Shown in pieces: positions 28,242 through 60,100 of a stretch of 64,000 nt of DNA. Source of the DNA: Lingula anatina (Eukaryota; Animalia; Brachiopoda); contig CM120640.1 of assembly GCA_051362555.1 (NCBI GenBank), positions 35,173,967-35,237,966 of the forward strand, in the 5' to 3' direction. How positions within the stretch are numbered: position 1 is the stretch's first letter; every line of letters starts with the position of its first letter. The notes under the pieces are model-generated. The model was not told where the DNA came from, did not search any database, and saw only the letters and a program-made list of their open reading frames with translations. Both the position numbers and the translations under genes were made by a program.

Positions 28242-29771
28242 GTACCTGGGCCTACAATCCCAAATGTATCCATAATTATTACAAAAAATTCTTATTGGCA
28301 AATGGAAAGAAATTACTGCTTCATTTTGTCATGGCAACAATTAAGTGAGTAGGTCCTCTTTCTACAGCACATTGCCCCTATGCTCTGTCACAAGAAAAAA
28401 AAATCAATCCACTTTTGAAAAAAATGAAATAAGAATCTTACAAAGTTTTTGAGCACTGAAGACCAGTGTCTGAATTCACTGTTTAGGCACAGATAAAATT
28501 TCTAACCTCCATGACACTTCTACGACATTTCCCCAATGTTGAGAGAGAGAATGCTGGATTTGTTAGTACCTGTATTGACTAGTTTTTTTTTTTAATCTTT
28601 TTTATCCAATTCAATAAAATTCAATTCAATAAAAAGTGAACAATTCAAACAATAACAATTACAAATGTCAATCTTTTTTTAAACCTTTGTAACAAGGAAA
28701 ATATATACAAAAAAGTAATGTTTTACAGCACTGCACTACAACTGCTTGCTGTAATCTACTCAAAAATGTAAAAGTTAATATTCTTAAAGTGTAAAAAGAT
28801 TATATTTTTGTTTATTTTTTAAGGAACAATATGTCCTTGGCAACAAACATTCAGAACCAAATCTTAAAAAAAAAAAAAAAAAACAGCATAAATAATGTGA
28901 TTAAGTAGATTATCTTTCTGTAAAATCACAGCTTCTGAAAAGATACTTATTAGCTTTATGATAGTCAATGTATATAGATGAACAAATTAATTTTAATCAC
29001 ACATGGTTTGGCACATTATTATCTAATTTTAATCCGATTACCCTTCCTAGAAATGTACAGATTTCTGGGAAAAATATTAATTACGTTAATACATATAGCA
29101 TGTCAGGTAATGATATCTAATTTGAAAAAGTGACAAAATGATTTAAATATTGTAAATAAACTCTTTCACAACAAATAGTGGTTAAAAATCTACTACACAT
29201 GGCCAATATATTAGATCCTTTTCTCCGACCTACCATTTCTTATGGCAGTATAAAGTTGGGCGACCTATTACTTTCAATTAACATGGCTTATACCCCAGCT
29301 TTCTTTAATACTGATCAAATATTCTGAAACCAAAAATTCCTAGTTTAAAACTGCCTAAACTTTCACAAAATCAAATGTTATTTTTAATACATTTAGTTAT
29401 GTTTTGCTGAGTTTTTATCAATATCTAATATTTGAACATCTATATTTAGACATCTAGTTATATGTATCCATCGAATTTTGATCAATATCTAAATATTCCT
29501 TAAACAAACTTTCCTTGTTTATAAATGCCTCAGCCTGGAAAGGACCAATGTTCTTAAGCGTCTTGTCATTCATATCTAATGCCATCTAATATTTATTAGC
29601 AAACCGCAATTTCCTTTTAACATTTACAAACTAATTAATGAAAAACTCCACCTTCAAATTCTTTCCATCAACTGACCAAATTAAAATGGTAAATTAATTG
29701 ATAATGCACAAAAACTAACTCTGTTAAGTGTCAATGCAAAACACTCCACACTGGTGAACAGGGAAAGACCT

Positions 29772-30350
29772 TTAGAAGTACACTGAATCATCAGAGAAAT
29801 CAAGGATTCCAAAATCTTCAGGGACCTAATGAAAAAGAATGCTCAGTATGAAACAACTTTTTCAAATAATCAACTGTTCATCGGCATTTTAAAGTTTAAA
29901 GTTCAAGTTTAAATAGATCTGATGTATCAAGCATATTAAAGGTCGTTGTGCTATGAAATTAATTTTTTTCCAAAAATGATATCTGATATCTCGAAAGAAA
30001 ATAATAATCATATGAGAGCAACTTCTTTAAGAAAATATATACCTCATGAAGTTCTTTATGTGAAGGAGATCTTATGACCTTTTCACCAGGAACCATAGCA
30101 AACTCATTTGATTCAGGAATCAAACCATCTGACATCTAACAACAAAGCAAAGTCTTTTTTAAATATATAAGATTCTTAAAACATACAATAAAAAATGTGC
30201 CAATTTTTATTTGTCATATTTCTGGTAATCTTAAATTTGTGTGGTAATAGTAACAGACAAGGTAGAAACAATCAAAAATACAAATAAGGCCACACCTTTT
30301 TAATTTTATGGATGACATCCTGCGCGCGCACCGATTTTCGTCCGTTCTCC

Positions 30351-30382
<32 letters not shown>

Positions 30383-33300
30383 CCCCCCCCAAACCGCCCC
30401 CCCCCCCCCCCCCCCCCAAAGGAAGTCGGTTGTCGCAAACATCGTTATTGAATTTGCCGGAAAATGCAATCGGCAATTCTCTGCTAATTCCGCAAGCTCC
30501 ATACTGTCATTGTCGACTGCGGAGACATCCGAGTAGTTCCGAGTGTGGAAAATGAGCTTTCTGCGCATGCGTATTATCACCACATGGAAATATGGCCGTT
30601 TTGCCATCAACTTCATCTCTAGCATTAATTTCAAAATACACGACAATTAAAGTCATAAAGAGAACGGGGGCCGTCGTTTTGGATTGGTTTGCCATTGATA
30701 TTGGACATGGAGATATCACCCTTTTACAATTTTACGAAAGGCTGGCCGCGGCCAGCAATCATCGCCCGGAAAATTTCAGTGACATTCTGTCCAAAGCAGC
30801 ACATACCAGTTTCTTTTTGGAGCGAAAAAAGGGTCGACAAGAGCGTCGCGGTATTTGGTGGACTGAAGGTCGGACAGGCCACCCGATAGTTGGCTGCTAG
30901 CGTGTGAGTCGAAGTAGACAAAATGGCATCGACCGAAATTACCTTAGTAGTAGGAAGCATAGGCCTATCTTTGCTTAATTTTTTTAACAATTCTGTGAAG
31001 TGTTTACAATGCTTTAATTTTCTGAGAGTACAAATAAAGACACGCTATTTATTTGATATTTGTTTTATTGGTTTCTATACCAACAGAATGCATGAAATAA
31101 CCTTAAATAGATTTGGTAATATGCAGCATATATATTCATGACTTTTTACCTTTCTACGAAGTAGGCCCTATTCACAATGCTTTAATATTTTGAGAGCATG
31201 GATAAAGACATGTTGTTAGTTTGATACGTGTTTCTGTGGTAAATTAGTGTTTCCAGCTGTGTACTGAAAACATAACTTTTCTTAAGCAGTTTTTTTTTTT
31301 TTTTTTTTTTGGACTGTTTTTTTTTTTTTTCGCCCGCTCGCACCGACTTTGGGGTCCCCAGAGGATGTCATCCATAAAAATAAAAAAGTGTGGCCTAACT
31401 TGAAAAAACTTACTGAAATGATACATGTATTCAAACAGGTGAAATATCTATGTTAATCTCTTATTCTGTTCACTTACCAACTGCAGAGGGGACTTGTTTC
31501 CAACCATCTCATACAAACATTCATCTGTAGCATTGAAATCTATGTCAAAGTCGAGTTCTTGGCCAAAGTTGAGTGTGCTGCTGTCATTATCCTGGCTAAC
31601 ATAAATGTCCCCAGGAGGTTCATCACTGGAGTCTGGACCTGTGGATTTTTCCTCCAATTCCTGAGGATCTTTGGCTTCCAGTGTTTTCTCTTGTTTCTCA
31701 AGAAAATCATCTATGACTTCCACGGGATATGTCATTATCTTTTCTGCAATCCCCCCAAAATTGAAATTACAAGTGCTTAGGGTATCTGCTAGCTAGGCTT
31801 ATGTTAAATATAATTTTGTATAATTTTATATATAATTTTTTATATAACTGAATCTAGCACATAAAACAAACATTTACCAACATAAAACAAACATTTACCA
31901 TACAAAATGACTAAACATTATTGACATTTTAAGCCTTCTCACCAAAATAAGGGAACACAAGGGTCAAATGAATTACTTTGTTCAGAATAAACATAAATGA
32001 AGTCAGTCAAAATGAAATATAATATGCACCTTCTTCAGTGAATAGAGAACTTGTAACTTCCTTCAGATCATCACTAAGATCACTACTCTGGGAGTCGTCA
32101 CTAGAGTTCTCCACCATTGCCATGGTAACCATAGTTTCACGGAAATCTTCCGGGAGTTTCTGCCACATGTCTGCAATAGTGCTGGACAGACATTCTGGCT
32201 TGACGTCCAATTCTTTAGCCGTCTCCTTGTAAAACTTCAAGTAGCTATATATGAATGAGGAAATGTTCAGAATCATGTAACTTGTATATCACTTACAACC
32301 GAAAATGGAAATTGGAAAGAAAATATTATGGAGATATGATAGAAACCATTAAAATTAATGTGCAATGTGGTATATGCCAAGATTTATATGTGATGCAATT
32401 GAACTTTTGCAAGTTTTGACCATTTTTCAAAAAAAAAATAAATAAATAAATGAATATTGTTGGTCTGACACACATATGCACCTACCCATCAAAGTCCTGA
32501 CAGTTAGGTGTGGGGGTAGAAGCAGGTTCAAGTGCCTGAAGAGCTACTGTGGCAGGTTTTGAATTGGGTGCTGGGCTACACGTAGATGGTTTTTCAGATT
32601 TCTTACGGCCAAACCTGAAAAAAAAGTTCATTCCATGTAAAACAGACTGACATATTATAAAATCAGCAACTTTGGCTGAAGAATGCAAAATATTACGTTG
32701 ACTTGAAAAAAAAAAGATCAACAGCTATTTTGATATATGATCTGATGCCTGAATGTCAATGTCCTAATTAATTCATATAAAATACCTACTTGACCAATTT
32801 GGTTTGTGTTATCTGTGAATCATCTGATTTCAGCTCAGTACTGTCCTCAGCCACTACCTTGAACCTACTCTTACTGCGCCTCTGATACATCCTAAAGATA
32901 GAGAAAAATTTAGCTACATTAAGTTATGACTGATAAGAATTAAGCAAACAATACCTAGTAAAACTGAGGGTAAAATTTTTGAGTGTAAAACTCAAAGTGG
33001 ACTTAAGCTGTATGTCTTTACAATATTGCATTGAATACTCTCAAACATCAGACTGAGAGTTCCCAAGTAAATCTATTGCTTTTGTCAACAGAATTGTGGA
33101 ATATATTCGTACTTCAAAAAGTTGACCCACTGCAGATTATGCTGATAAAACAAAAGATGGGGTAAATTTTAGACGTTTTCCAACACATTTTAAATTGCTA
33201 ATGGTTGACAAAAGAAACTACATACTTGGTCTTGAACACATATACCCCATTCACACTACGCTCAGTTATCCGGATAAATTGCGAATGAGGTCACAATTCA

Positions 33301-36300
33301 AATAAATGCAGTAGTGTGAACGCAAGAGGATTTTTGTAATGCGCATTTTCAAAATCCTGCAAGCGAGGTGGATTTCTAAGCGCGATCCGGATAACTTACC
33401 GGAATCAACACCTGTACAGATCTTACTGCGCATGTGTGCAGATAAGTGCGGGTATCTATGAACGCTTGTTTATTACTTTAGCGATTGCACCAAACGTATT
33501 TGGAGGTCACCACTCACTACAACATGAGGAAACAAACTTATTTTGCCACCTTATACTTCTCAAGAATGCTGGAATGTCTTTTGAGTTGCATTTGTCGTCA
33601 CAAATTTTTGTTGGTATTTTAAGATTTCCAGTGCGGCGCATGCACGAGTGTTCAAAACAGGAAGTTAAACCTGAAATTTTCAACGTGTAATTTGGTTTCG
33701 CTTAGCGTGTGTGAACACAATACCGAATCGAATTCCTCACAAAAAATTCGGATTATAGAAATGCGCATTTTTGCAACTGTAGTGTGAATGGGGTAATAGT
33801 AAATGTAACTCAACAGTAGAATATCCAAGAATTAAATCACCTCTGTAAATGTAACATTTTAGAAATATGACATACAGAAAAATAATTTTATCACAACACC
33901 ATGACTTACATCACGTAAAAAATAATGCAGTATGCATAATACTTATGGAATTATATATAAGAAGCTGGGCTCTGTAACTCGAAATCATCACAAATTGCAA
34001 CCGAGCGCAAGCACCTCTATTCCATAACTCGGGATTGACTTGCCCCATATAATAGCCTCGAAAGAAAAGGTGATATCGCTATTCACAATTCATGATGCTT
34101 TTGAGTTACAGAGCCCTGGTTAATATTATATGATATTACATTACATTATACAATCAAATGGTTAAAATTTCATATACCCCTCAAGCTTCCTTCTACACTT
34201 TGGGTTTGCACTCACAACTGCCTCTCCAGGCTTTCTTTTGGTTGGTGTTGGGCTGTCCTCACTTTGACTGAAAAAAAATATAAATATATATTTGTTTGCT
34301 TTTAAAATTCTTCCCCCTGAAAGCATCATGCAACAGGTATTTTTTATCAAAACGCATTACAGGGCTAACAATATACAATGACAATCAATGTGTCTATTCA
34401 GTTACATGTATATGTCCCAAGCATAGAACCAGATCAGCAGGTCACCGTTTATAACTTGCCAAGAATCACTTAATTATTTCCTCTCTGATTCTTTACGTTT
34501 GGATCATTTAAATTGGCATGATTGCAATTTTTAAGCAAGTTCTGAACATGCTTAAATCTGGCTAAGCAAATGTAAAATAATTTTAATTCGTTATTTATCA
34601 ACTTTTCATTTTGACTTGTAGCCTCTAAGATCCACTAATCCATGTGACAAGTGAGGTAAAATAAGTACAGAATGATGCACCAATGGTAATCATTGGAGAC
34701 AGCCTAACTGTTTGCACTGTGTGACCTCATATGAGACAAGAAAATGTGAAAAAATGTGAAAAAACACTACACTCTCTAGCCTACCATTATTTCTGACACG
34801 ACTCCACTTCAAATCCCTTGAAATCTCCTTTGATTTTACACTAAGTCATAAAGTTTTTGGCTTTTACAGATGATTCCCATCCCATTAATGTTAAAAAAGA
34901 TTTTAAACATGCTAATGTATAAAGATCATTTAATAGATTTCAAAAATATTATAAAAGCACCACAACTTACCTTTGACTAAAATAAAGCCCGTTATTCAGT
35001 TGGTGTTGGTTCTTGCTGTCCCTTGGAGAATTCCACTCAGAAGCTTCATCAGAAAAACTGAATAACAAAATGAAAAAAAAAATTATGAAGAACAATTTTT
35101 TTACCACAAATAATTAACTGGGTTTTTGTGTCAATGTTAAACCATGCTTAATTACAGTATGTTGTCATTTAAAGTTAGTTTTTTCTACTGTTGCTTTTAT
35201 TTCTTAATTGATCAATCTCAAGTTATGGGAAGAAAGCCACTCAACATTAGATAAAGAAGATTGATTATTAAGCTACATAGTTTATAATTCAGTCTTTGAA
35301 AACTGTACATTCTTATAGTTTTAACTAAACCAGAAATAAAAATCAGACCCTGTACAAATATATTACAAATTAAATGACCCTTTATTTACCCATCAATTTC
35401 ATCCTCAAGATTAATGGCCTCCATAGTTTCATGACACAGCAAACTTTCATCATCTAGGTCCTGAATGTAATATAAATTTTACAATGTGTTTTTTGCTACA
35501 AGCACTGGTTTATCACAATAGAAATATCATATAATTTTAGTGGTCTGGGATCAGGATGTCTGTTTAAACTGGTGGCAATGCAAAAGTTATACAAAAGTAT
35601 GAACACTTGTAATGGAAAGAATATGCAATCTAGGTACTTAATAATATAGTCCATATTAAACATCAAATATAAGAAACTTGACATCGGATTTCATAAAGAA
35701 AAAGCAAATCAAACTAATACTGAACCTCTGAATTCCGAGCGTCTGTCTGTGCATCCTCTTTCCAGTTGTCAGGAAGTTTGATAGGAGTGAACCCAGGACT
35801 GTATTTCTGGTGAAATATCTGGAAAAAAAATCAGCAGAAATATTTTGATGCGTAATATCACCAAGTTCTCCTATACTAGTTGCTACCAGTAGAACGCTCT
35901 GGAACATTGTGCCCAATTTACTTGATCCTACTCCCCATCATAAACAAAAATGGTTCCTTTACATCATGGAAATGTGAGATAGTCATTTAATTCTGTCTTT
36001 GATCTAGAGATCCACACATACCAGTATATACATCCAAATCAATCATTATTTTCAATTAATACATCATATTAAATATGACAAGTAAATCAAGCAAGATTGA
36101 GCTAACTGTGGCTTATCCCGAGGAGCAGCATTAGTGCAGGGTGCACATTGTTAGCTTTTTCGAAGACGTAATTTCAAGACAATTTATCCCACAACTTACT
36201 ACCACATGATCCTTCTTGCTTGGTGTTCCAAGGCTCCAAGTCCCCTCCAAGTATGGTGCTGTTTCTGAGACCACATTCTCTATTCTCAAGGACAGTACAG

Positions 36301-38036
36301 ATGTTAAGTCTTCCATACCATCCCCAGGGACCAATTGGGCCATGTCTAAAGGCCTGGACTTGCTGAGCTGTCCATTTGGTTTGGTGCCAGGAGCTGCTGG
36401 TACTATTTGCTCAGACTTGTTCTCTTGTCTCTCTGAAGGTTCTTGTTTCTGGGGCAGTTTCTTGTTGATTTTTCCTTTGGTTTTCTTTTTGGACTGTATC
36501 TTCTCAATTGGTGGCATGCCAAATGCTTGTGGTTGGTTCTTTGTGGCATTCAACATCTGCCTTGTTAAGGTTTCGGGTATTGGTGGCTGCTTAGAAATTG
36601 CTGCTGCTGGATAAAATTCCAAAATTTCCAAATAAAAATTGAGGTTATTTTACAAAAATGTGATTTCTTGTACTAATCAAAGCCTTTTTTTATCACAGAT
36701 AGATATTCACAGACAGTGAAAAAAGAGCTTCTTTGATCAAACTTTACAAATCATTACGTATTTATTATACCCTGTTTCAGTTGTGGTTTCACTAAAGTTG
36801 GGCGTGGCAACAGCTGCTTTGGACCCAACACTGGACTATGACATCTTTCCAAACAAGCCAAGGAACCCGGGTGAACTGTCTCCAGTTTATCAAATACTTG
36901 ACCCTGGGCATCACTTGGCACAACTTGATAGTCAAATGAGTCCCACAGATACTGCAGTTGACTTTTTATAGGGTTTCTGTTGACTTTGACAGCTCTTTCT
37001 TTAGCTTTACTAAAAGGAACATATATAAAAGTCACATATAGTTATTGATTGATTGTCATATATTCCTTGCAGCAGTTAGATTTTTTATCTGCTTATTTAA
37101 TATTTTTTTATCAATTATTATTATTCACGAAACTTTTTTATGTATTATCCAGTTATAAATTTTTGCATAGCAAAAATAGAGTTAACTATTCCACTTCAAA
37201 AAAGCAATAAAAAACAAACAAAAAAGTTTAAAATTTTGTTTTAAAGAAAACTGCTTACCTGCTTTTTGTTTGGAGTTTTGCCTGGTGCTCAATAAACTGC
37301 TGCTTTACTTTTTCCATGCTCAAGTCTTCACTGTTACCAACCAGTTTAGCTGGAAAAAGCAAAATATGAAATTGTTCAACAACAACAACAATCCACATTA
37401 TTTTGCCCATCATCATAGTCACTTTCATCAATTGCATTAACATTACTATTTTCCAAAATATTAAATATCTATGTGATTTACCTCAGCAATAAATAAATTA
37501 ATAAAACAGTAAATGTTTTCTCTTTCATTCTCAAAGCATGGAAATATGCGATGTCCTACCTTTTTCGTTCAAAAGCGTTTGCAGTAACCCTTCAAGAAAT
37601 ACCATATGCTTGGATGCTTCTTTCAAAATCATCGCCTAAAGTTAAAACCGCATGGTATCATATCATCCTAACTTCATTACAATATTATTACTGATTTCAA
37701 AATAGTCAATTCTAATCTTTAAAATAATAAGAAGGTATGTTACTTAAATACTTGGGTTTAAAGGTTATATGAATTTCAAAGAAAATTCTAAACAGCATCT
37801 TCAGATATGTGAGCCTGTGGTCACTACATTTTATGCACTGTAAAATTGTAATTGTAAAAAAAAAAAAAAGAAGAAGAAGAAGACAGGGGGAGGATGCACA
37901 CCTTAGTAATTTTCATACGTCTTCCTTCCTTCCCATTGTTGTCAATTAAAACTATCTGTTTCAGGGTTTCATAACAGCCTGCAATGCTGGCCCGCCATTT
38001 AGCATCTGACCGACGACGACGTTGCTTTACAGACAT
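29772..38036 (-). CDS. STRA8: STRA8-like protein (N-terminal bHLH, HMG-like box, acidic tail), ~15 coding exons, roughly 700 aa
   Basis: Exons ~37902-38036, 37560-37635, 37259-37349, 36771-37010, 36199-36607, 35726-35819, 35390-35461, 34971-35057, 34180-34267, 32787-32891, 32486-32614, 32029-32244, 31477-31743, 30043-30135 and 29772-29825. N-terminus RRRRSDAKWRASIAGCYETLKQIV...TKAMILKEASKHMVFLEGLLQTLLNEKAKL..SMEKVKQQF. A later spliced block reads DFDGYLKFYKETAKEL...LSSTIADMWQKLPEDFR. Both resemble the two conserved blocks of vertebrate STRA8 as I recall them. Middle exon boundaries are less certain. Confidence 0.75.
30288..31395. mobile_element. Non-autonomous PIF/Harbinger-like element (~1.1 kb) in a STRA8-like intron
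   Basis: TIR GGCCACACCTTTTTAATTTTATGGATGACATCCT with an imperfect reverse complement ending at 31395. TAA TSD at 30285-30287 and 31396-31398. CpG-rich interior. Confidence 0.88.
33243..33795. mobile_element. MITE with 17-bp TIRs and 3-bp TSD in a STRA8-like intron
   Basis: TACCCCATTCACACTAC...GTAGTGTGAATGGGGTA; ATA is duplicated at 33240-33242 and 33796-33798. Confidence 0.85.
33965..34118. mobile_element. Small MITE-like inverted repeat
   Basis: GGGCTCTGTAACTCGAAATCATCA...TGATGCTTTTGAGTTACAGAGCCC, ~30-bp imperfect arms; no clear TSD. Confidence 0.7.
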
Positions 38037-39526
38037 CTTTCCTTTTCACATCAGGGCCTGAGAAGTAAATAAAGTATTAAAAAAATTCTGGGTACTTAAA
38101 AATGTACCCTCTACTATTCAAACAATTTAAAAGTATCAAAAAATTATTCACTCTGAAATTACCAAAATAATTCATTTAAAGAGCACAGGCATTAATTAAA
38201 GTCACCACATAAATTAATTTAGAAAAATATTCAAAATCAAAGTCTTATACATGCACTGACAAAAGTTTTTGGACATGTCCTAGGGGCAAGCATGTACTTT
38301 CCCAAAATTAATACTTGCTGTGAAAAATGTCTGTACATGCTCAAAAGTAGAATCACTCAAATATTTAAATACTCCCCCCCTCAACACTTCCCTCTCTATG
38401 CTTACATAGACTTTTACACTTTAAAAAATGTAAGTCACTCAGGTGAGAAAAACACCGAACAACTATGCTCAGAAAAACCATTAATTTGCTCCTTTGCACT
38501 AATTTTTACTTGTCTGACAACTCCAATGACTCTCCAATCACTTGCGGCCCTGGATGTACTTGCAAGCCTTATTGTCAACACTTGTTACTAGTATGGGGTG
38601 GGGATTACTGCAAAAGAAATTCATTTTTCAAACAGTAATTCAAGCCAGGTTAGTTGCAAATAAAGGCCAACTTGAAGTTACATGGTCTTTAACTGAAGAA
38701 AATAGAAAACCTATTTGATTAATAATATATTTTAATAGAGAACCTAACAATTAACTTCATACATTTCACCTACTCTATATTCAAACAGACTGTAATAAAA
38801 CATGGTTGACACTAAGAGGTGTCATATATTTCTACATGCAACTTCAAGGTTAGAATACAGATACCATACAAGTAATACATATGCCTAGGGAAATATATAT
38901 GTGTTTACAGTAGTTCTGTTATCTATTATTTTGTAACATCTCCAGATCGCCAGTCCAAGTCACGATTAACGCAATAAATTAGTGAATAATAATATATATA
39001 ATAATAATTGAGAATGCACACTATACAAAAAAGTTAATGTAATCTTCATGATAATCATAATTGCCGTTGCGAATAACTGCAGATCATGATGCAGCTTTGT
39101 TGTTGATGATTGACACAACAATTTCATCATTGAATGTTTGCGGTGTTATTCAAATCTAAGCCTGACCTTTTAATTTCTGTATATTTATCTCTTCAACGCA
39201 ACAATGACAGAAATCAAATTTAGCACTAAAACTACGTCAAACAAACCATACTTGCCTTTGAAACGCTGAAGTCAGTGAAGAGCACTTGTTGCCCGCACAT
39301 TCGCAGGTCAAAAAAATCCCACGCTAAGGTGTATTTTAAAAACATTCGAGTACAACCGTTTCCCACGCTCAGTGTCAGTTGCCAAGGCGACAGTATTATT
39401 AAAGAAACAATGTTAAGAGATACCCTGGATGAAAAGAAACAACGTGTTACTTTTTTAAAACTTCGCGCAGCACTCATATAAAATTTCGCGCCTTTCACCG
39501 CATGAAAATTCACGCCACCTATCGGT

Positions 39527-42500
39527 ATGTTGAAAAACATGGCTAGGTGTTGCAGACGTCTCACCGCTGATATTGCGGGGGAGTTTCTTGCATCTGTGGA
39601 CACCTTTCTATTCGATTGTGATGGTCAGTCAGTGATATACTAAACAAGGAGTTAAATGGGTTCCTTGGCCAGGTCAAATGCATGCTATGTGGCGTAGTAT
39701 GAATGTATTGTAAAGGGACGTGGAGGGGGGGGGGGCGTAAGAGGAAGGCACAATGCTAGCACGAATTTCTATTTTCATGCGTAGCCCTCCAAGTTACGGT
39801 TGCTGATATGTACTGGATGGCAGTGGATATCCATGAGTACTGACTGTACTGGGTCTGTGAGCAGAATTTCATAAAGTTTGCGCGTCACTTTTCCATTACA
39901 CGTTTTAGGTTTTACCAGTATTTACTTCCCCCTCCCCATACATATGGTACTACTGTAGTACATATGTACAGTATAACAAAAAAGTATATGAACATCAACA
40001 AAAATCATTTGACAAAATGTTTGTATTTGTGGAATATTTGTTATATATACATGTAGTTCAAATTTAAAGGGCTCTGCATGATGTTTAAAAGACTTTAATA
40101 CTGAATTCATAGATTTATGTACTAATGATGACTGGCGTGATTTGTGTTATAATTATCTAAATTAAGTCATGGAGTTGCAAGCAACTTTTTGATGAATGAA
40201 AAATAATTGCAATTTTCATGGTTGAATAGCATTCTTGGGTAAAATGACTTAAAATTGTATAATTACACAAGTAATTATTTCTTGAAGTCTGGGTAACTAA
40301 CAAATTAACCAGAAGCCTAACCTGAAGCAATTGCAGCATAATGCATACCAGTTATAAAAAGCCACTTTTATCAAATGATGTATTTTTATTTCTGATTCAG
40401 GTGTCTTATGGAATCACCAAGATGCCACTCCTGGTGCTGTGGAAACTTTAGATAAGCTTAGAAATCTGGTAAGTTGATTGAGTATATTACAGAAAACAGA
40501 GTATTCAGTCCTCAGCCAACTCAAAATGAAAATAGTAAAGAAATAAACTTTTTGAATTCTAAAAATCTGTTGAAATCTTAATCACTTCCTTTTCCCTCCT
40601 GAATAACTGCATATCAGTCTACCATGAAATTTTCATCAAAATTTGTGAAAAACTGTGTGCATGCAGCAAAACAACTGCTATAATCAGCAATTTTACACAA
40701 GGCTGCTTACACAATGAAAGTATTCTAGTACTAATAGTCTATGGTTGTTCAAGCAAACGCTGCAGGAACTCATGCTGAACCAATCAGATTAATATATAAG
40801 CACCTTTCCTCTTGTTTCCAACATATTCGTATAATCACCAATTTTCTGTATTCTACTACACACCAGGAGGAGCCACATTAATCTTTGAAATCTGACTGCA
40901 TTCAGCGAGAGTCCACACAGAGTTGGTCCAAACTACCTACTCAGTAGCTTCATTGTGAACACACCCTAAAATAAAACAATGTGTTGTCACCTCTGTGACA
41001 GCTAGCTATTAAGATGCTTTCTTTCATTATTGCTTTATTTCAACACTGAGTATAGCCTATGTGAAATGATCAAACTGTAATTTAAATGTTTGCCTTTGAC
41101 TATTTCAGAACAAAAAGGTATTCTTTGTAACCAATAACAGCACCAAAAGCAGAGCTGACTATGTGAAGAAGTGTTTACAGCTAGGATTTCATGCTGAAGA
41201 GGTACAATATAAGTTTATTCTGAACCTCGGGAGTGTAAGTACATGTATAAGTTTATAATAACACTCACTAGTTAGTAGTATTGAGTGCCGTGTCAGAACA
41301 ATGTGATGATGAACTAAAAAGTATAAATCAGTGATTCTGCATATTACAGGATGAAATCATATGCACAGCATTTGTAGCAGCACAGTATTTGAAGTCTATC
41401 CTGCCAGCCAACAGTAAGGTCTATGTGATGGGTATGCCAGGGATGCTACAGGAGCTTGACAAGGCTGGTATCAGACATATAGGTAGTGGGGTAAGTAGAG
41501 AATAGTGGTGATGTATTATTGGAGTGAATTATAATTTCTCTCTTATGATTTTTAGGCTTTACTTGAATGAGGTCACGTGGCCTAAGCCTCATCCTTCTCT
41601 CCTCCTCTCTCTTTTGCTCTCACTAAGCCAGGGAAGACTCGTGCAATAAAGCTTTAATTCTATTTTTTAATTTTAATTCCCCAGTAGGGGACAAGAAAAG
41701 TAGCTGTCCACATCTCTGATTTATGTACAGGATTTTGGATAAAAGGCTTATAAACTTAGGAGCTTCTTTTAAATTGTGTTGAATATTTTAAGTAACACAG
41801 AATGAAATTTATTGCAGCCTGATGTTATTCACGGTACAATCACAGAATGGGTGCAGACAGAACTGGACCCAGAGGTGAGTGGCTGAAAGTGCATTCAACA
41901 GGCTGACAATAAGTCACACCTAGCACACTATTAATGGAACTACACCTAACACACTGCAATGGGTCACACCTAACACATTGCCATGGGTCACACCTAACAC
42001 TGACAAACTATGAGCACATTCGGAGCAGATGATCCACCAATCAAATATGGCTGACACCACTTAAAAAGCAATGCCACTTATGCCCTGGTGGTCTCCCTGC
42101 CTCCACAAATGCCATTAAACGGATTAAATCTCATCTCCGAGGTTTAATTGCTAGACCCCTGCAGCGATGGCACACGTTGAGGTGGGGAAACCAACAGTGG
42201 AATTAGAAGCGCCACTTTTTGAGTGGGGTCAGCCATATTTTGTCTGCGGATCACTTAGTCCACAAATCATGTGTTCTGAACGTGCTCTATACTTATTATT
42301 ATACATTGACAACACTGCACTTTAATTTATGCTCTTTCTGTCAACAACACTCATTAAACTGTTTGCAAAAGTTGTAAAGAATGAATTTGGGTAAAATTTC
42401 TTTAGCATGTTACTAAAATAATGAATTTTATAGAAAAAGAATATATTAAAATAAATGAGTTATTCTAATGTTATCATTAGCTTTTATTGAATGTAATAAT

Positions 42501-43793
42501 TATTAAATTTCACATCAGTTCACACCATAAATGGTTCTTTAAATATTCATACTTTCTTGCTAGAATGCGCCTCAGCGATCAATTCTGATTTTTATGCTAT
42601 AATTTTCCCTCTATTTTTAAAAAGGTGAACTGTGTGTTATTGGGCTTTGATGAAAACATCAGTTATCTTAAAGTTATGAAGGCAGCATCTTATGCACGTC
42701 GCAAGGGTGCATTCTTTGTGGCCACAAATGAGGACAATGAACTTCCAATGGATGGGCCAATAGTTATACCAGGTTGGTACTTCCAGAAAATTTATTTTCC
42801 TCTGATTTACTGCAATTTCTTTTCATTGTTTATTTTTGTTAAATATCCTTATGGTCAGTGTTTTCCAAATTCAAATTAAGGATAAGGCAAGTGACAAAAA
42901 TGTACTTTTTATTATCTGAAAACCAATTGCCAAGTTCTTTTTATCTTTTATGCAATCTAGAAATTTTTTGTTTGTTTGTTTATTTGTTTTATTTGATAAT
43001 TTTAATCATACTTATTTTATATTTTCATTTTCAGTCACATTTAATTGAGCTTATTTTATTTTAATACAGTACAAGAAGTAAATTTGTGACTCTTCTGTTT
43101 TTCACAGGTACTGGAGTTGTAGTGGCCGCAGTGAAGACAGCAGCTGCTCGAGATCCAATTGTAGTAGGCAAACCCCATCACCCTATGTTTGATATGATAG
43201 CCAAGTCATTCAGTGTAGATCCAGACAGGACAGTCATGGTGGGAGACAGGTAAGGACACTGTTTTACATCAGAAAAAAGTCACACTGGTGCTGTGGGTAT
43301 GTTTGGTATCCTATTAGCCAGCGATTTCCTTTTCTGAAAAAGCAGACCTTTTTACCCCCACCCACTCACTCATGTATGGGCCTGCAATGTTTGGGATAAT
43401 TTTATTCTCTTGAAAATTCAGTTTAACCATATGTCAATTCCAGTTTCTGTCTGACTAATGATCCACAGTGTCCATCTGTCATTTAGATATATGCGTATGC
43501 ATCACATATTATTCACCTGGCTCATTATTCTCACTCATTGTCATGAACTTGATTTATTTTTATATATCACTTCATTTCCTGTATGTCATCCAGTCTTATG
43601 TTTATATTCTAGGTTAAACACAGACATCATGTGGGCAAATAATTGTGGACTTCATTCTATAATGGTCTTGACGGGAATAGCAACTTTAGAAGAGGCTCAA
43701 CACCTAATGACCAGCAATTCTATAGAACACCAAAAGCAAATACCAGAATTTTATTTAGACAAGATAGGAGACTTGGAGGAGTTCTTGAATTGA
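39527..43793 (+). CDS. PGP: HAD-IIA phosphatase (phosphoglycolate/glycerol-3-phosphate phosphatase-like), 8 coding exons
   Basis: Exons ~39527-39623, 40401-40468, 41109-41201, 41351-41491, 41818-41874, 42626-42773, 43108-43249 and 43613-43793. Motifs FLFDCDGVLW, FFVTNNSTKSR, FVATNED..PGTG, VVGKP, MVGDRLNTDI. The start could be 39527 or 39539. Confidence 0.92.
42009..42291. mobile_element. Degenerate MITE-like inverted repeat in a PGP intron, preceded by a short ~23-bp tandem repeat (41913-42000)
   Basis: GAGCACATTC..AAATATGGCTGACACCACTTAAAAAG compared with the reverse complement of CTTTTTGAGTGGGGTCAGCCATATTT..GAACGTGCTC. Confidence 0.6.
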
Positions 43794-57133: not shown

Positions 57134-60100
57134 ATGGAGCAAGATATCAAAATGGAGACCCTTACGCCTGAGGAAGAAAGTACTTACGATATTATTTCTT
57201 TAGATACAAGGCCAACAGGGGAGGCTGTTAATCAACCTGAGAATAACGCGCAAAATGAAGAAGCTGCAGAGACTGAGATTGACATCACGATCCAGCCCAC
57301 ACCAGAAAAGGATGGAACGAGGGCGTGGCTGGTGTGCTTTGGCGGCTTTTTGATACAAGTTCTAATTGTTGGTTTCCTTCACGTATATGGCATATTCTTT
57401 GTCAAGTTCCTAGAAGAGTTCAAATCTTCTAAGGCGACCACAGGTAAAAAGTTTGTCTCAAGACTGAAGTGTATATATTTCTCATTTCTCTTTCGTAACT
57501 GTTTTCTCTTCTGATACAACGCGATCAAACTAAACATATTTCACAAAAATAGAAATAATTACGTACCTACCCTTCCACGATTATTTATCTTTTAAGCTTG
57601 GGTTGGAGCTCTGGCATACGGCGTAGCCATGGCCCTCGGTCCGCTGTCCAGCGCAGTCATCAACCGCTATGGCAACAGGATAAGTGCAATGATAGGGAGT
57701 ATCATCTGTTCCATCGCTCTTCTGATCTCGTCATTCATGCCCGACGTCACCTGGCTCTTCGTCACCCTTTCGTTCCTCTACGGATGCGGGTGTTGTTTCG
57801 CCTACACCCCAACTATGTGCATCTCTGGCGACTACTTTGAGAAATACGTCGCACTGGCCACGGGGATCATGACGGCGGGGAGCAGCGTAGGGACCCTCAT
57901 TCTGTCACCATTTACCCAACTTCTGGTAGATAGTATCGGCTGGAGGGGCGCCTTTAGGGTGTTTTCGGGGGTCGTGTTAATTCCACTGTGGAGCTCCTAT
58001 CTCTTCAAACCATTGGAAGGTTCCCACAAGACCCCCAGTCAGCGGATCAAGACTTCATTGGCACGCCGGGTGATCGCCGACTTGGCCCTGTGGAAGAACA
58101 GAGTATTCATTGTGTGGATTGCGGGGATTTTTCTTGTCATGTTTGGATACTATATTCCATACGTCCATTTGGTAAGTTTTAATTTGTTTCAAACATTCTA
58201 ATTAAATTACTTAAAAGAAAAAAAAACAAGATAAGACCTCAGTAGCTTGCTGTTTTTTAAAGTGAATGTTCAATCATTTCTATTAAGAAACCAGGAAATA
58301 ATTTACTAATTATTATTATTCAAATAATTTTCAATGAGTAAATTTGAGCTAAATTTTTGTACAACCAAGGTCTCCTATGCAATGGATGTCGGGATCCCAC
58401 CAACACAGGCCTCACTTCTTATGATGGTAATGGGTGGCGCTACGGCAACGGGGCGAGTTCTCTTCGGCAAGATTGTAGAATATGGCTTCCTGAACCGCCT
58501 CCATATGCATCAATTATCTATGGTCGTCACGGGCACGGGGTGCATGCTTCTCCCCCTTATTCGGTCCTTCTCAGGGCTGGTTGCCTACGTCATCTTTATC
58601 GGCCTAGTCGACGGATGTTATGTGGTGTTACTGCCAACCTTGACGGCTAGTTTTGTAGGACAAGACCGAGCCGTTGTGGCTTGGGGATTTCTGGTCGGTG
58701 TAACGTCTATAACTTACACGCTGGGACCACCAATCGCAGGTAATAAATTCTTCAATTAGTATTTTTAGTGAGACTTTTACAAAGACATAGCAAAACTTTT
58801 TTTAAATTCAGGCTTAATTTAATTTAATTTTCATTTAATCCAAGTTGAAGTTTAATTTAGCTGTATTTGACGATTTTCTTACAGTTAGTTGCATGGGTGA
58901 AAAAAGAAAAATTAAAAGTGTTGAAAAAAAAAAACGTAGCTTGCATTGCATTTAACCCATTCGAAAAGGAAACGTTCAAAATGAAAACCGATTTTCCTGA
59001 AATCAGACATAATCCTGAAAACTTTCACCCATGGATTTGCTCTTATTTAATTCCATTTCAGGACTAATATACGACAGCACCGGGTCTTATAACCTGGCCT
59101 TCCACTTGGCGGGAATTCCTCTCATCCTCGGAGCCCTCATTTTATTCCTCGTCCCCTGGGCACAGCGGACTGCCAAGACAACCAACGTGATGGTTGCCGC
59201 CAGGAAAACATACGAACAGTTCCCAGAATCCGAGACAGACAGAGCAGACGACAATTGGTTGACCAAGGAGGAGGAGGAGGAGGATACAGGGGATTTCTTG
59301 GTCTTTGAAAATTGTAATAACCATATATGTATATCTGAAAATTATTTTTTTTAATCAATCTTCCTTTACCTTACAGTGAAAATAGAGCTTGTTTTCTTAT
59401 TCTGATAAGGAATAGTTGAAATACGTATGATTACGGTTTCAGAAGGGAAATATTCTCCCTAGAAAATACATTTTAGGGCATAAAATAATTTTTAAAAAAA
59501 AATTAAAAAATTAAAAAAATGAAATACTAAATATGGGATATTTCTATTTAAAGTTGATGACAAAAATGAACACCGAGAGGAAGGAATCGATATCCCGACC
59601 AAGAATTCCGCAAGCAGGGATACCCTTGTCCCCAGCAGTGTCAGCAAAGCCATTGACATCCTGAGGAAAACATCTCGCACTTTGTTCAGAACCAACTCAG
59701 ACCCTGAGAGACAATCACTGGTTTCTGGGCTTCAGGTTATCTGTATTCATCAAATATTTAGACTCCGAATTAAACTGTCCGATATTCATTGGCTAAATAT
59801 AATTTCGTTTTGCCCTTTGAAATCTATCAAATTCATATAATAGCATTTTGTTAATTCATCCATTCATTATATTATATTATATTATTAATTATTATTAATA
59901 TTATATTATTACCTCCGCCAAGGAGGTTATGTTTTCACCCCTGTTTGTCTGTCTGTCTGTTTGTCATCAACATAACTCAAAAAGTTATGGACCGATATTT
60001 ATGAAATTTTTTAGGTAGGTCAGAAATGGGTTTACTTAGAAGTGATTAGTTTTTGGTGGTGATCCGGATCAATAATCAATCATATTATATTATATTATAT

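Follow-up and report, generated by a model that had tools for sequence, protein, structure and literature searches.

The LHLH2 gene of the brachiopod Lingula anatina as a likely protostome relative of the meiotic regulator STRA8

A 64,000-nucleotide stretch of the genome of the brachiopod Lingula anatina (contig CM120640.1; "the window" from here on, with positions counted from its first letter) contains a gene that is intact, spliced and transcribed, and that very probably belongs to the lineage of STRA8, a factor of meiotic entry in mammals. The gene is a member of LHLH2 (alias LmorHLH), a family of basic helix-loop-helix (bHLH) proteins reportedly described by Bao, Xu and Shimeld in 2017. 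It is our belief, which we would put at roughly 60%, that LHLH2 is the protostome branch of STRA8 and that its members are germ-cell transcription factors acting at meiotic entry. The case for STRA8 is built on several features taken together, namely two domains (an N-terminal bHLH and an HMG-like box), an extra helix behind the bHLH, the LxCxE motif, and an amphioxus protein that bridges the two sides. We know of no trigger of meiosis established for animals outside a few model species.

The gene and its transcripts

The gene comprises 15 coding exons on the minus strand, running from an ATG at 38036 to a TAA at 29772 (Table 1). All 14 introns have GT-AG ends, and their phases give a single 2148-nucleotide frame of 715 residues with one terminal stop. 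The original prediction had read a bHLH-like block from small spliced exons at the N-terminus and had taken the whole for an intact gene of an invertebrate genome. This reading holds: the coding sequence of the bHLH is divided among exons 1-3, and a query with the 70 residues of exon 12 matched one protein, at 100% identity, namely LOC106167240 of Lingula anatina, which is annotated as "uncharacterized". Over its full length the gene model differs from isoform X1 of that locus (XP_013401415.1) at 16 of 715 residues (98% identity), the RefSeq cluster containing isoforms of both 714 and 715 residues.

Reads from four Lingula RNA runs (X1, X4, X7 and X9, with 6 to 30% of each run used) were mapped to positions 29500-37150. 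In run X1, exon joints were found for introns 4 (at both acceptors of a NAGNAG site), 6, 7, 8, 9, 10, 11 and 12, that is, for 8 of the 11 introns in the mapped stretch; for introns 5, 13 and 14, no joint was listed among the X1 reads mapped there. The second block of the original prediction, which is the HMG-like one, does cross a phase-2 junction at 32486/32244, spanned by six reads in X1 and one in X7. Run X9 gave thin cover on exons 4-5 and X4 no joint of this gene, and nearly all spliced reads come from X1, a run that carries no tissue label. Introns 1-3 lie outside the read-mapped stretch, and the joining of the bHLH exons to the remainder is based on the closing phases, on the RefSeq model and on full-length relatives that carry both domains. 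In introns 13 and 9 (30268-31547 and 33084-34107), all four runs gave numerous diverged, loose-ended reads matching either strand, a pattern as from transcribed repeat copies elsewhere.

Homology to STRA8

A phmmer search of 1.84 billion representative proteins with the Lingula protein (expectation value E up to 0.001) returned 36 relatives besides the query, 20 of which were looked up, 16 of these with names. The named relatives come from annelids (Owenia, Capitella, Helobdella), molluscs (Lottia, Batillaria, Aplysia, Gigantopelta, Solemya, Sinanodonta, Dreissena and oyster), the nemertean Tubulanus, the horseshoe crab Tachypleus and amphioxus, and they further include a second Lingula copy and newt STRA8. 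The last is the sole functionally named relative among those looked up (E 2e-4, in two stretches), which agrees with the STRA8 assignment of the original prediction; no echinoderm or cnidarian protein and no MEIOSIN was among the named matches. In a pairwise comparison with newt STRA8 (QIS93418.1), the Lingula protein aligns in two blocks that stand in the same order, namely the bHLH with the helix that follows it (31% identity over 86 columns, E 7e-8) and the HMG-like box (28% identity over 71 columns, E 2e-8).

The same likeness is seen with profiles. Namely, profiles of the bHLH and HMG parts built from 19 protostome proteins, with newt and amphioxus left out and 1000 shuffles each as control, gave 28.1 and 28.3 bits for newt STRA8 and 48.2 and 35.6 bits for amphioxus, as against at most 7.8 bits for the shuffles (at most 4.0 for the newt bHLH). 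With the full profile, newt STRA8 reached 47.0 bits and the best PDB chains 19.4 (HMGB3) and 17.8 (ID1); its HMG part had 25.4 bits as against 19.2 for the best HMG chain of the PDB. In the reciprocal direction, the newt STRA8 query scored the Lingula protein at 37.7 bits and passed 11 of the 37 family proteins (itself included), and in the PDB no chain with a bHLH or HMG fold came up for either the newt or the amphioxus query (E up to 10). With an E limit of 0.1, moreover, the Pfam model bHLH_STRA8 (PF23175) matched 30 of the 36 relatives, four of which passed its gathering score of 25 bits, namely Lottia (27.3), the horseshoe crab (26.6), amphioxus (39.4) and newt, the first two being protostomes. 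Word-index protein searches returned only the RefSeq Lingula protein or two sequences already in the set, the Lingula protein had no phmmer match in the PDB at E up to 5, and the ESM Atlas gave only leads below 0.9 (HLH 0.75, NUT 0.88, HMG_box 0.84).

A tree of the 17 family proteins that carry both domains (161 columns, unrooted, without outgroup and with long branches; the other 20 of 37 were left out as fragments, single-domain or redundant) unites newt with amphioxus (91/88) and the molluscs with one another (98.6/88), and places the horseshoe crab beside Capitella with weak support. Intron 1 of the Lingula gene is of phase 0 and follows the invariant Lys45, which we take to be the same lysine as human Lys86; such introns are common in bHLH genes. 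In human STRA8, exon 2 ends at Lys86, also in phase 0 (PMC9941050).

Domains, basic region and motifs

AlphaFold2, run on a 19-sequence alignment, predicted helices at residues 3-28, 45-74 and 82-109, and a three-helix box at 504-557 with a per-residue confidence score (predicted local distance difference test, pLDDT) of 86-96. The predicted N-terminal helices fit bHLH folds (best Z 6.7, root-mean-square deviation 2.8, 64 residues aligned) and the C-terminal box fits HMG folds (Z 6.7, deviation 2.2, 57 aligned). Foldseek gave no match at E up to 0.001, its top ranks being HMG and bHLH chains, and newt STRA8, when modelled from its sequence alone, yielded no informative structure (pLDDT 33.9). 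The rest of the Lingula protein, including the linker between the domains, is predicted to be disordered, with pLDDT mostly below 50. The original prediction had described this linker as much longer and of low complexity: long and disordered it does appear to be, but it is more than low-complexity filler, because it carries three conserved short motifs.

In ungapped register, the position of the basic-region glutamate of TAL1 is occupied by Asp in Lingula and amphioxus and by Gln in newt. In canonical bHLH proteins this glutamate reads E-boxes. An atypical basic region, without the E-box-reading glutamate, is thus common to Lingula and STRA8, with amphioxus intermediate; a pattern for it, composed after viewing the sequences, fits 33 of 37 proteins. 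Mouse STRA8 has been linked to CNCCTCAG, not to CANNTG (PMC6392498).

Motifs were counted in the 30 proteins of 300-1200 residues, newt and amphioxus included (7 of 37 were dropped by length), and in 500 shuffles. The strict LxCxE motif, a third STRA8 feature that is absent from the original prediction, is present in 26 of the 30, newt and amphioxus among them, as against a shuffle mean of 2.2 and maximum of 6. The GFTP(V/I)KLP-type and KCRRxL-type motifs, with patterns composed after viewing the alignment, occur in 19 of 30 proteins each, as against 0 and 0.04 by shuffle. The Lingula LxCxE, LLCHE with an acidic tail, is a predicted ligand of the RB pocket, and GFTPIKLP resembles a CDK site of the form T-P-x-K. 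A second LxCxE-like match at residues 151-155 was set aside, since relatives do not have it at that place. In the mouse, it is through LxCxE that STRA8 attaches to RB1 and p107 and sets the timing of pre-meiotic S phase in females (PMC10600341).

Taken side by side, the Lingula protein and newt STRA8 (the PF23175 family) have in common the atypical basic region, the extra helix behind the bHLH, the HMG-like three-helix box, LxCxE with an acidic tail, and the order of the domains. In contrast, the Lingula protein is about twice as long (715 as against 343 residues), its bHLH and HMG-like box are separated by about 400 residues rather than about 50, its LxCxE is internal rather than C-terminal, and the GFTP(V/I)KLP and KCRRxL motifs of the protostome proteins are absent from both newt and amphioxus. 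The amphioxus protein XP_078586822.1 has both domains, an intermediate basic region and LxCxE; its linker is about 140 residues long, and its LxCxE is C-terminal, as in vertebrates. It is presumably the product of the amphioxus stra8 gene reported earlier (PMC3769385).

Identity with LHLH2

The Lingula gene is LaLHLH2 of the LHLH2 family. Namely, the LaLHLH2 row in the supplement of PMC5381572 is the exon 1 reading frame, continued into the following intron, and the LHLH2 accessions given there for Lottia, Capitella, Helobdella and oyster agree with our phmmer matches. In that paper LHLH2 is tabled as a novel, lophotrochozoan-only bHLH family, defined from the bHLH alone; neither STRA8 nor HMG is mentioned in its text, and a word search of that text and its supplement did not find "Stra8". 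A whole-word literature search for both family names, LHLH2 and LmorHLH, matched this paper only. The horseshoe crab member breaks the lophotrochozoan-only range.

Two further observations concern the family. A second, diverged Lingula copy lies outside the window and is apparently split over the consecutive models LOC106179231 and LOC106179230. Its linker is 49% and its HMG and tail 63% identical, LxCxE is kept, and neither model has a bHLH; the copy may be a paralogue that lacks this domain, or else the annotation may have a gap there. In addition, one 62-residue relative stops a few residues past the loop lysine, as if translation had run on into an intron located where Lingula has intron 1.

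Weighing the alternatives

How well does a STRA8 assignment, with a role at meiotic entry, stand up when its parts are judged one at a time? A number of observations, gathered in this section, weigh against it. On the bHLH-only profile newt STRA8 has 25.3 bits and TAL1 23.8 (amphioxus 49.4), scores so nearly equal for the first two that the bHLH alone cannot assign the family; in the bHLH part of the full profile, STRA8 likewise has 18.7 bits and ID1 17.8. The Lingula protein itself scores 14.9 bits on PF23175, below the gathering score, and 19.4 bits, that is, more, on the generic HLH model of Pfam. The structural Z-scores are below 8 and therefore show fold type only. A single vertebrate STRA8, that of newt, passed the phmmer search, and its reciprocal rank is biased, since it was the Lingula query that had brought it up. 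The oyster orthologue has an eroded HMG-like box (10.3 bits, as against 55-82 in the other profile members), with the bHLH and LxCxE kept. Finally, LxCxE stands before the HMG box in protostomes and at the C-terminus in amphioxus and newt, and the motif may therefore have arisen twice.

Starting from the close bHLH scores and the differing place of LxCxE, one could argue that LHLH2 is a bHLH family of independent protostome origin, that it gained its HMG box and LxCxE convergently, and that its likeness to STRA8 is generic. Its publication as lophotrochozoan-only points the same way, though STRA8 is not mentioned in the text or supplement of that publication (PMC5381572). We consider this highly improbable. 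The two domains stand in the same order and are accompanied by the extra helix; the amphioxus protein links the one side with the other, with 49.4 bits on the protostome bHLH profile and 39.4 on the Pfam STRA8 model; a STRA8 query finds LHLH2 proteins and no solved bHLH or HMG chain; and the horseshoe crab member does not fit a family confined to lophotrochozoans.

Another possibility, which we regard as distinctly unlikely, is that the gene is an orthologue of MEIOSIN, or represents the single ancestor of STRA8 and MEIOSIN, from which the pair arose by later duplication. In length and layout, with the bHLH at the start and the HMG near residues 500-560, the Lingula protein is like MEIOSIN, a further point against STRA8 that was compared by description only: MEIOSIN (BHMG1) is described as having an N-terminal bHLH, an HMG near the C-terminus and a long disordered middle (PMC13637641), and Arg579 of human MEIOSIN falls in the HMG. 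That said, the 20 relatives looked up, out of 36 from phmmer, include STRA8 and nothing by the name of MEIOSIN, the alignment with STRA8 takes in both the HMG-like block and the helix behind the bHLH, and LxCxE is given for STRA8, and not described for MEIOSIN, in PMC13637641 as available.

If the gene is indeed an orthologue of STRA8, what is its task in protostomes? The numbers at hand come from the oyster orthologue (PMC5381572, Table S10), for which expression in fragments per kilobase per million (FPKM) is 9.06 in the male gonad, 1.17 in the digestive gland, 0.71 in the female gonad and at most 0.10 in six other organs. During development it is about 2-3 from egg (2.2) through morula (3.2) to blastula, below 0.5 in larvae and 1.7 in juveniles. 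These values fit a germ-line gene with a maternal store, and pre-meiotic timing lies beyond what such organ-level numbers can tell.

The transcripts in eggs and early embryos, at 2-3 FPKM, also belong among the points against meiotic entry, as does the statement of the authors of PMC5381572 that the gene is expressed across a variety of tissues and stages. What is more, a motif scan of positions 37640-41000 found no retinoic-acid element of the direct-repeat types DR1, DR2 or DR5 and no CNCCTCAG site, the missing retinoic-acid element counting on the same side. One can thus imagine an RB-binding cell-cycle factor, active in gonial proliferation, later spermatogenesis or cleavage-stage embryos, that was recruited to meiotic initiation only in chordates. 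The presence of oyster transcripts from egg to gastrula, the roughly 13-fold excess of male over female gonad, and the entry of zebrafish and hagfish into meiosis without STRA8 (PMC13637641) all speak for it. We nevertheless hold this to be rather unlikely: the gonad is by far the top adult organ for the oyster orthologue, its embryonic signal drops steadily after gastrulation, as a maternal store would, and all the STRA8 parts are retained together in the family. By analogy with mouse STRA8, the Lingula protein would probably have a role at meiotic entry.

How the protein might work can be sketched on the same analogy. Its HLH would dimerise with a partner HLH protein, which in mouse is MEIOSIN, the binding of the two being mediated by their bHLH domains (PMC13637641). 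Through its atypical basic region and its HMG-like box, the protein would attach to non-E-box sites in promoters and increase the expression of meiotic genes, and LxCxE would bind the RB pocket, free E2F and time pre-meiotic S phase. Most speculatively of all, the T-P-x-K and KCRRxL motifs of the linker might tie the protein to cyclin-CDK control.

Gene layout and neighbourhood

Table 1. Coding exons of the Lingula STRA8-like gene and the CpG-rich stretch upstream of it (window positions)
Feature	Position	Strand	Content and evidence
Exon 1 (coding part)	37902..38036	-	ATG, basic region, helix 1 and loop of bHLH, residues 1-45; phase-0 intron after Lys45; matches LaLHLH2 in the supplement of PMC5381572
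Exon 2	37560..37635	-	76 nucleotides, bHLH helix 2, residues 46-70; gene model and AlphaFold2
Exon 3	37259..37349	-	Last part of helix 2, first part of the extra helix common to STRA8, residues 71-100
Exon 4	36771..37009	-	Linker, residues 101-180; joint with exon 5 in reads
Exon 5	36200..36606	-	Linker, residues 181-316; NAGNAG acceptor 36606/36603 giving 715- and 714-residue isoforms; both acceptors in reads (8 and 3)
Exon 6	35726..35818	-	Conserved GFTPIKLP motif at 35794-35771
Exon 7	35390..35460	-	LxCxE motif LLCHE, residues 354-358, at 35442-35428, acidic tail; both flanking joints in reads
Exon 8	34971..35057	-	Linker; joints in reads
Exon 9	34178..34267	-	Conserved KCRRKL motif at 34200-34183; joints in reads
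Exon 10	32790..32891	-	Basic linker; joints in reads
Exon 11	32486..32614	-	Last codons are the first residues of the HMG-like box; joints in reads
Exon 12	32030..32244	-	Body of the three-helix HMG-like box (whole box residues 505-558, 32493-32091); reads, AlphaFold2, structure fit
Exon 13	31478..31743	-	Acidic tail; joint with exon 12 in reads
Exon 14	30043..30135	-	Acidic tail; agrees with RefSeq protein
Exon 15	29772..29825	-	Final coding exon and stop; agrees with RefSeq protein
CpG-rich stretch	39250..39540		Between the STRA8-like gene and a HAD-phosphatase gene (ATG 39541, +), head-to-head; E2F-like TTTCGCGC at 39484

The CpG-rich stretch is, to judge from its sequence, likely the promoter common to both head-to-head genes. 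Its one E2F-like site, as against 0.1 expected, is a weak signal and may serve the neighbour gene. A possible untranslated first exon of the STRA8-like gene, 5' of the ATG exon, can be read from the sequence at about 39250-39330 on the minus strand. The neighbour, a HAD-family phosphatase gene at 39541-43793 (+) with Hydrolase_6 and Hydrolase_like domains, is presumably PGP-like. Elsewhere in the window, positions 152-25000 hold a cysteinyl-tRNA synthetase exon (-), eIF3M (+), two tandem papain-family proteases (-) and a DUF2045 gene (+), and an MFS transporter lies at 57596-58198 (+).

Implications

The original prediction held that the meiotic switch may predate vertebrates. For the STRA8 part this agrees with our results, but it was partly known already: an amphioxus stra8 orthologue, identified by reciprocal BLAST, has been in print since 2013 (PMC3769385), and a pre-vertebrate origin is therefore not new. 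What is new is the protostome range and the equation of LHLH2 with STRA8. In the literature searched, we found no publication that links LHLH2 or a protostome gene to STRA8; the search did not extend to subscription journals or to PANTHER and InterPro labels, and the latter may already name invertebrate members STRA8. Nor did we find a passage there that calls STRA8 vertebrate-specific, a common description according to the original prediction, the passages that were found concerning other genes. In particular, the available portions of PMC11879061, PMC12824366, PMC7804246, PMC7743902, PMC13012086, PMC11829761 and PMC8589329 treat STRA8 only for vertebrates, name it only in their references, or concern other genes. 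A 2026 paper on MEIOSIN-STRA8 evolution covers vertebrates only, more distant species having been left out, and leaves undecided whether Stra8 disappeared from hagfish or was never present in them (PMC13637641).

The Lingula gene is likely the same gene as STRA8, handed down from an ancestor that molluscs, worms and vertebrates share. Going further, and with somewhat more doubt than confidence, one may suppose that the last common bilaterian ancestor already possessed the assembled meiotic-entry module of mammals, consisting of STRA8, its HLH partner and its RB-binding motif. In annelids, molluscs, brachiopods, nemerteans and chelicerates, LHLH2 would then be the trigger of meiosis, so far unrecognised as such, and retinoic-acid control would have been added later in chordates. 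If LHLH2 is the protostome branch of STRA8, the absence of Stra8 in hagfish becomes a loss, a bHLH family regarded as lineage-specific becomes an ancestral bilaterian one, and the coupling of meiotic entry to RB through LxCxE is predicted to be ancient. The gene would also be a candidate sterility target for shellfish farming. In other words, a key meiotic regulator would be extended across the bilaterians, with one gene and one motif named on which this can be tested.

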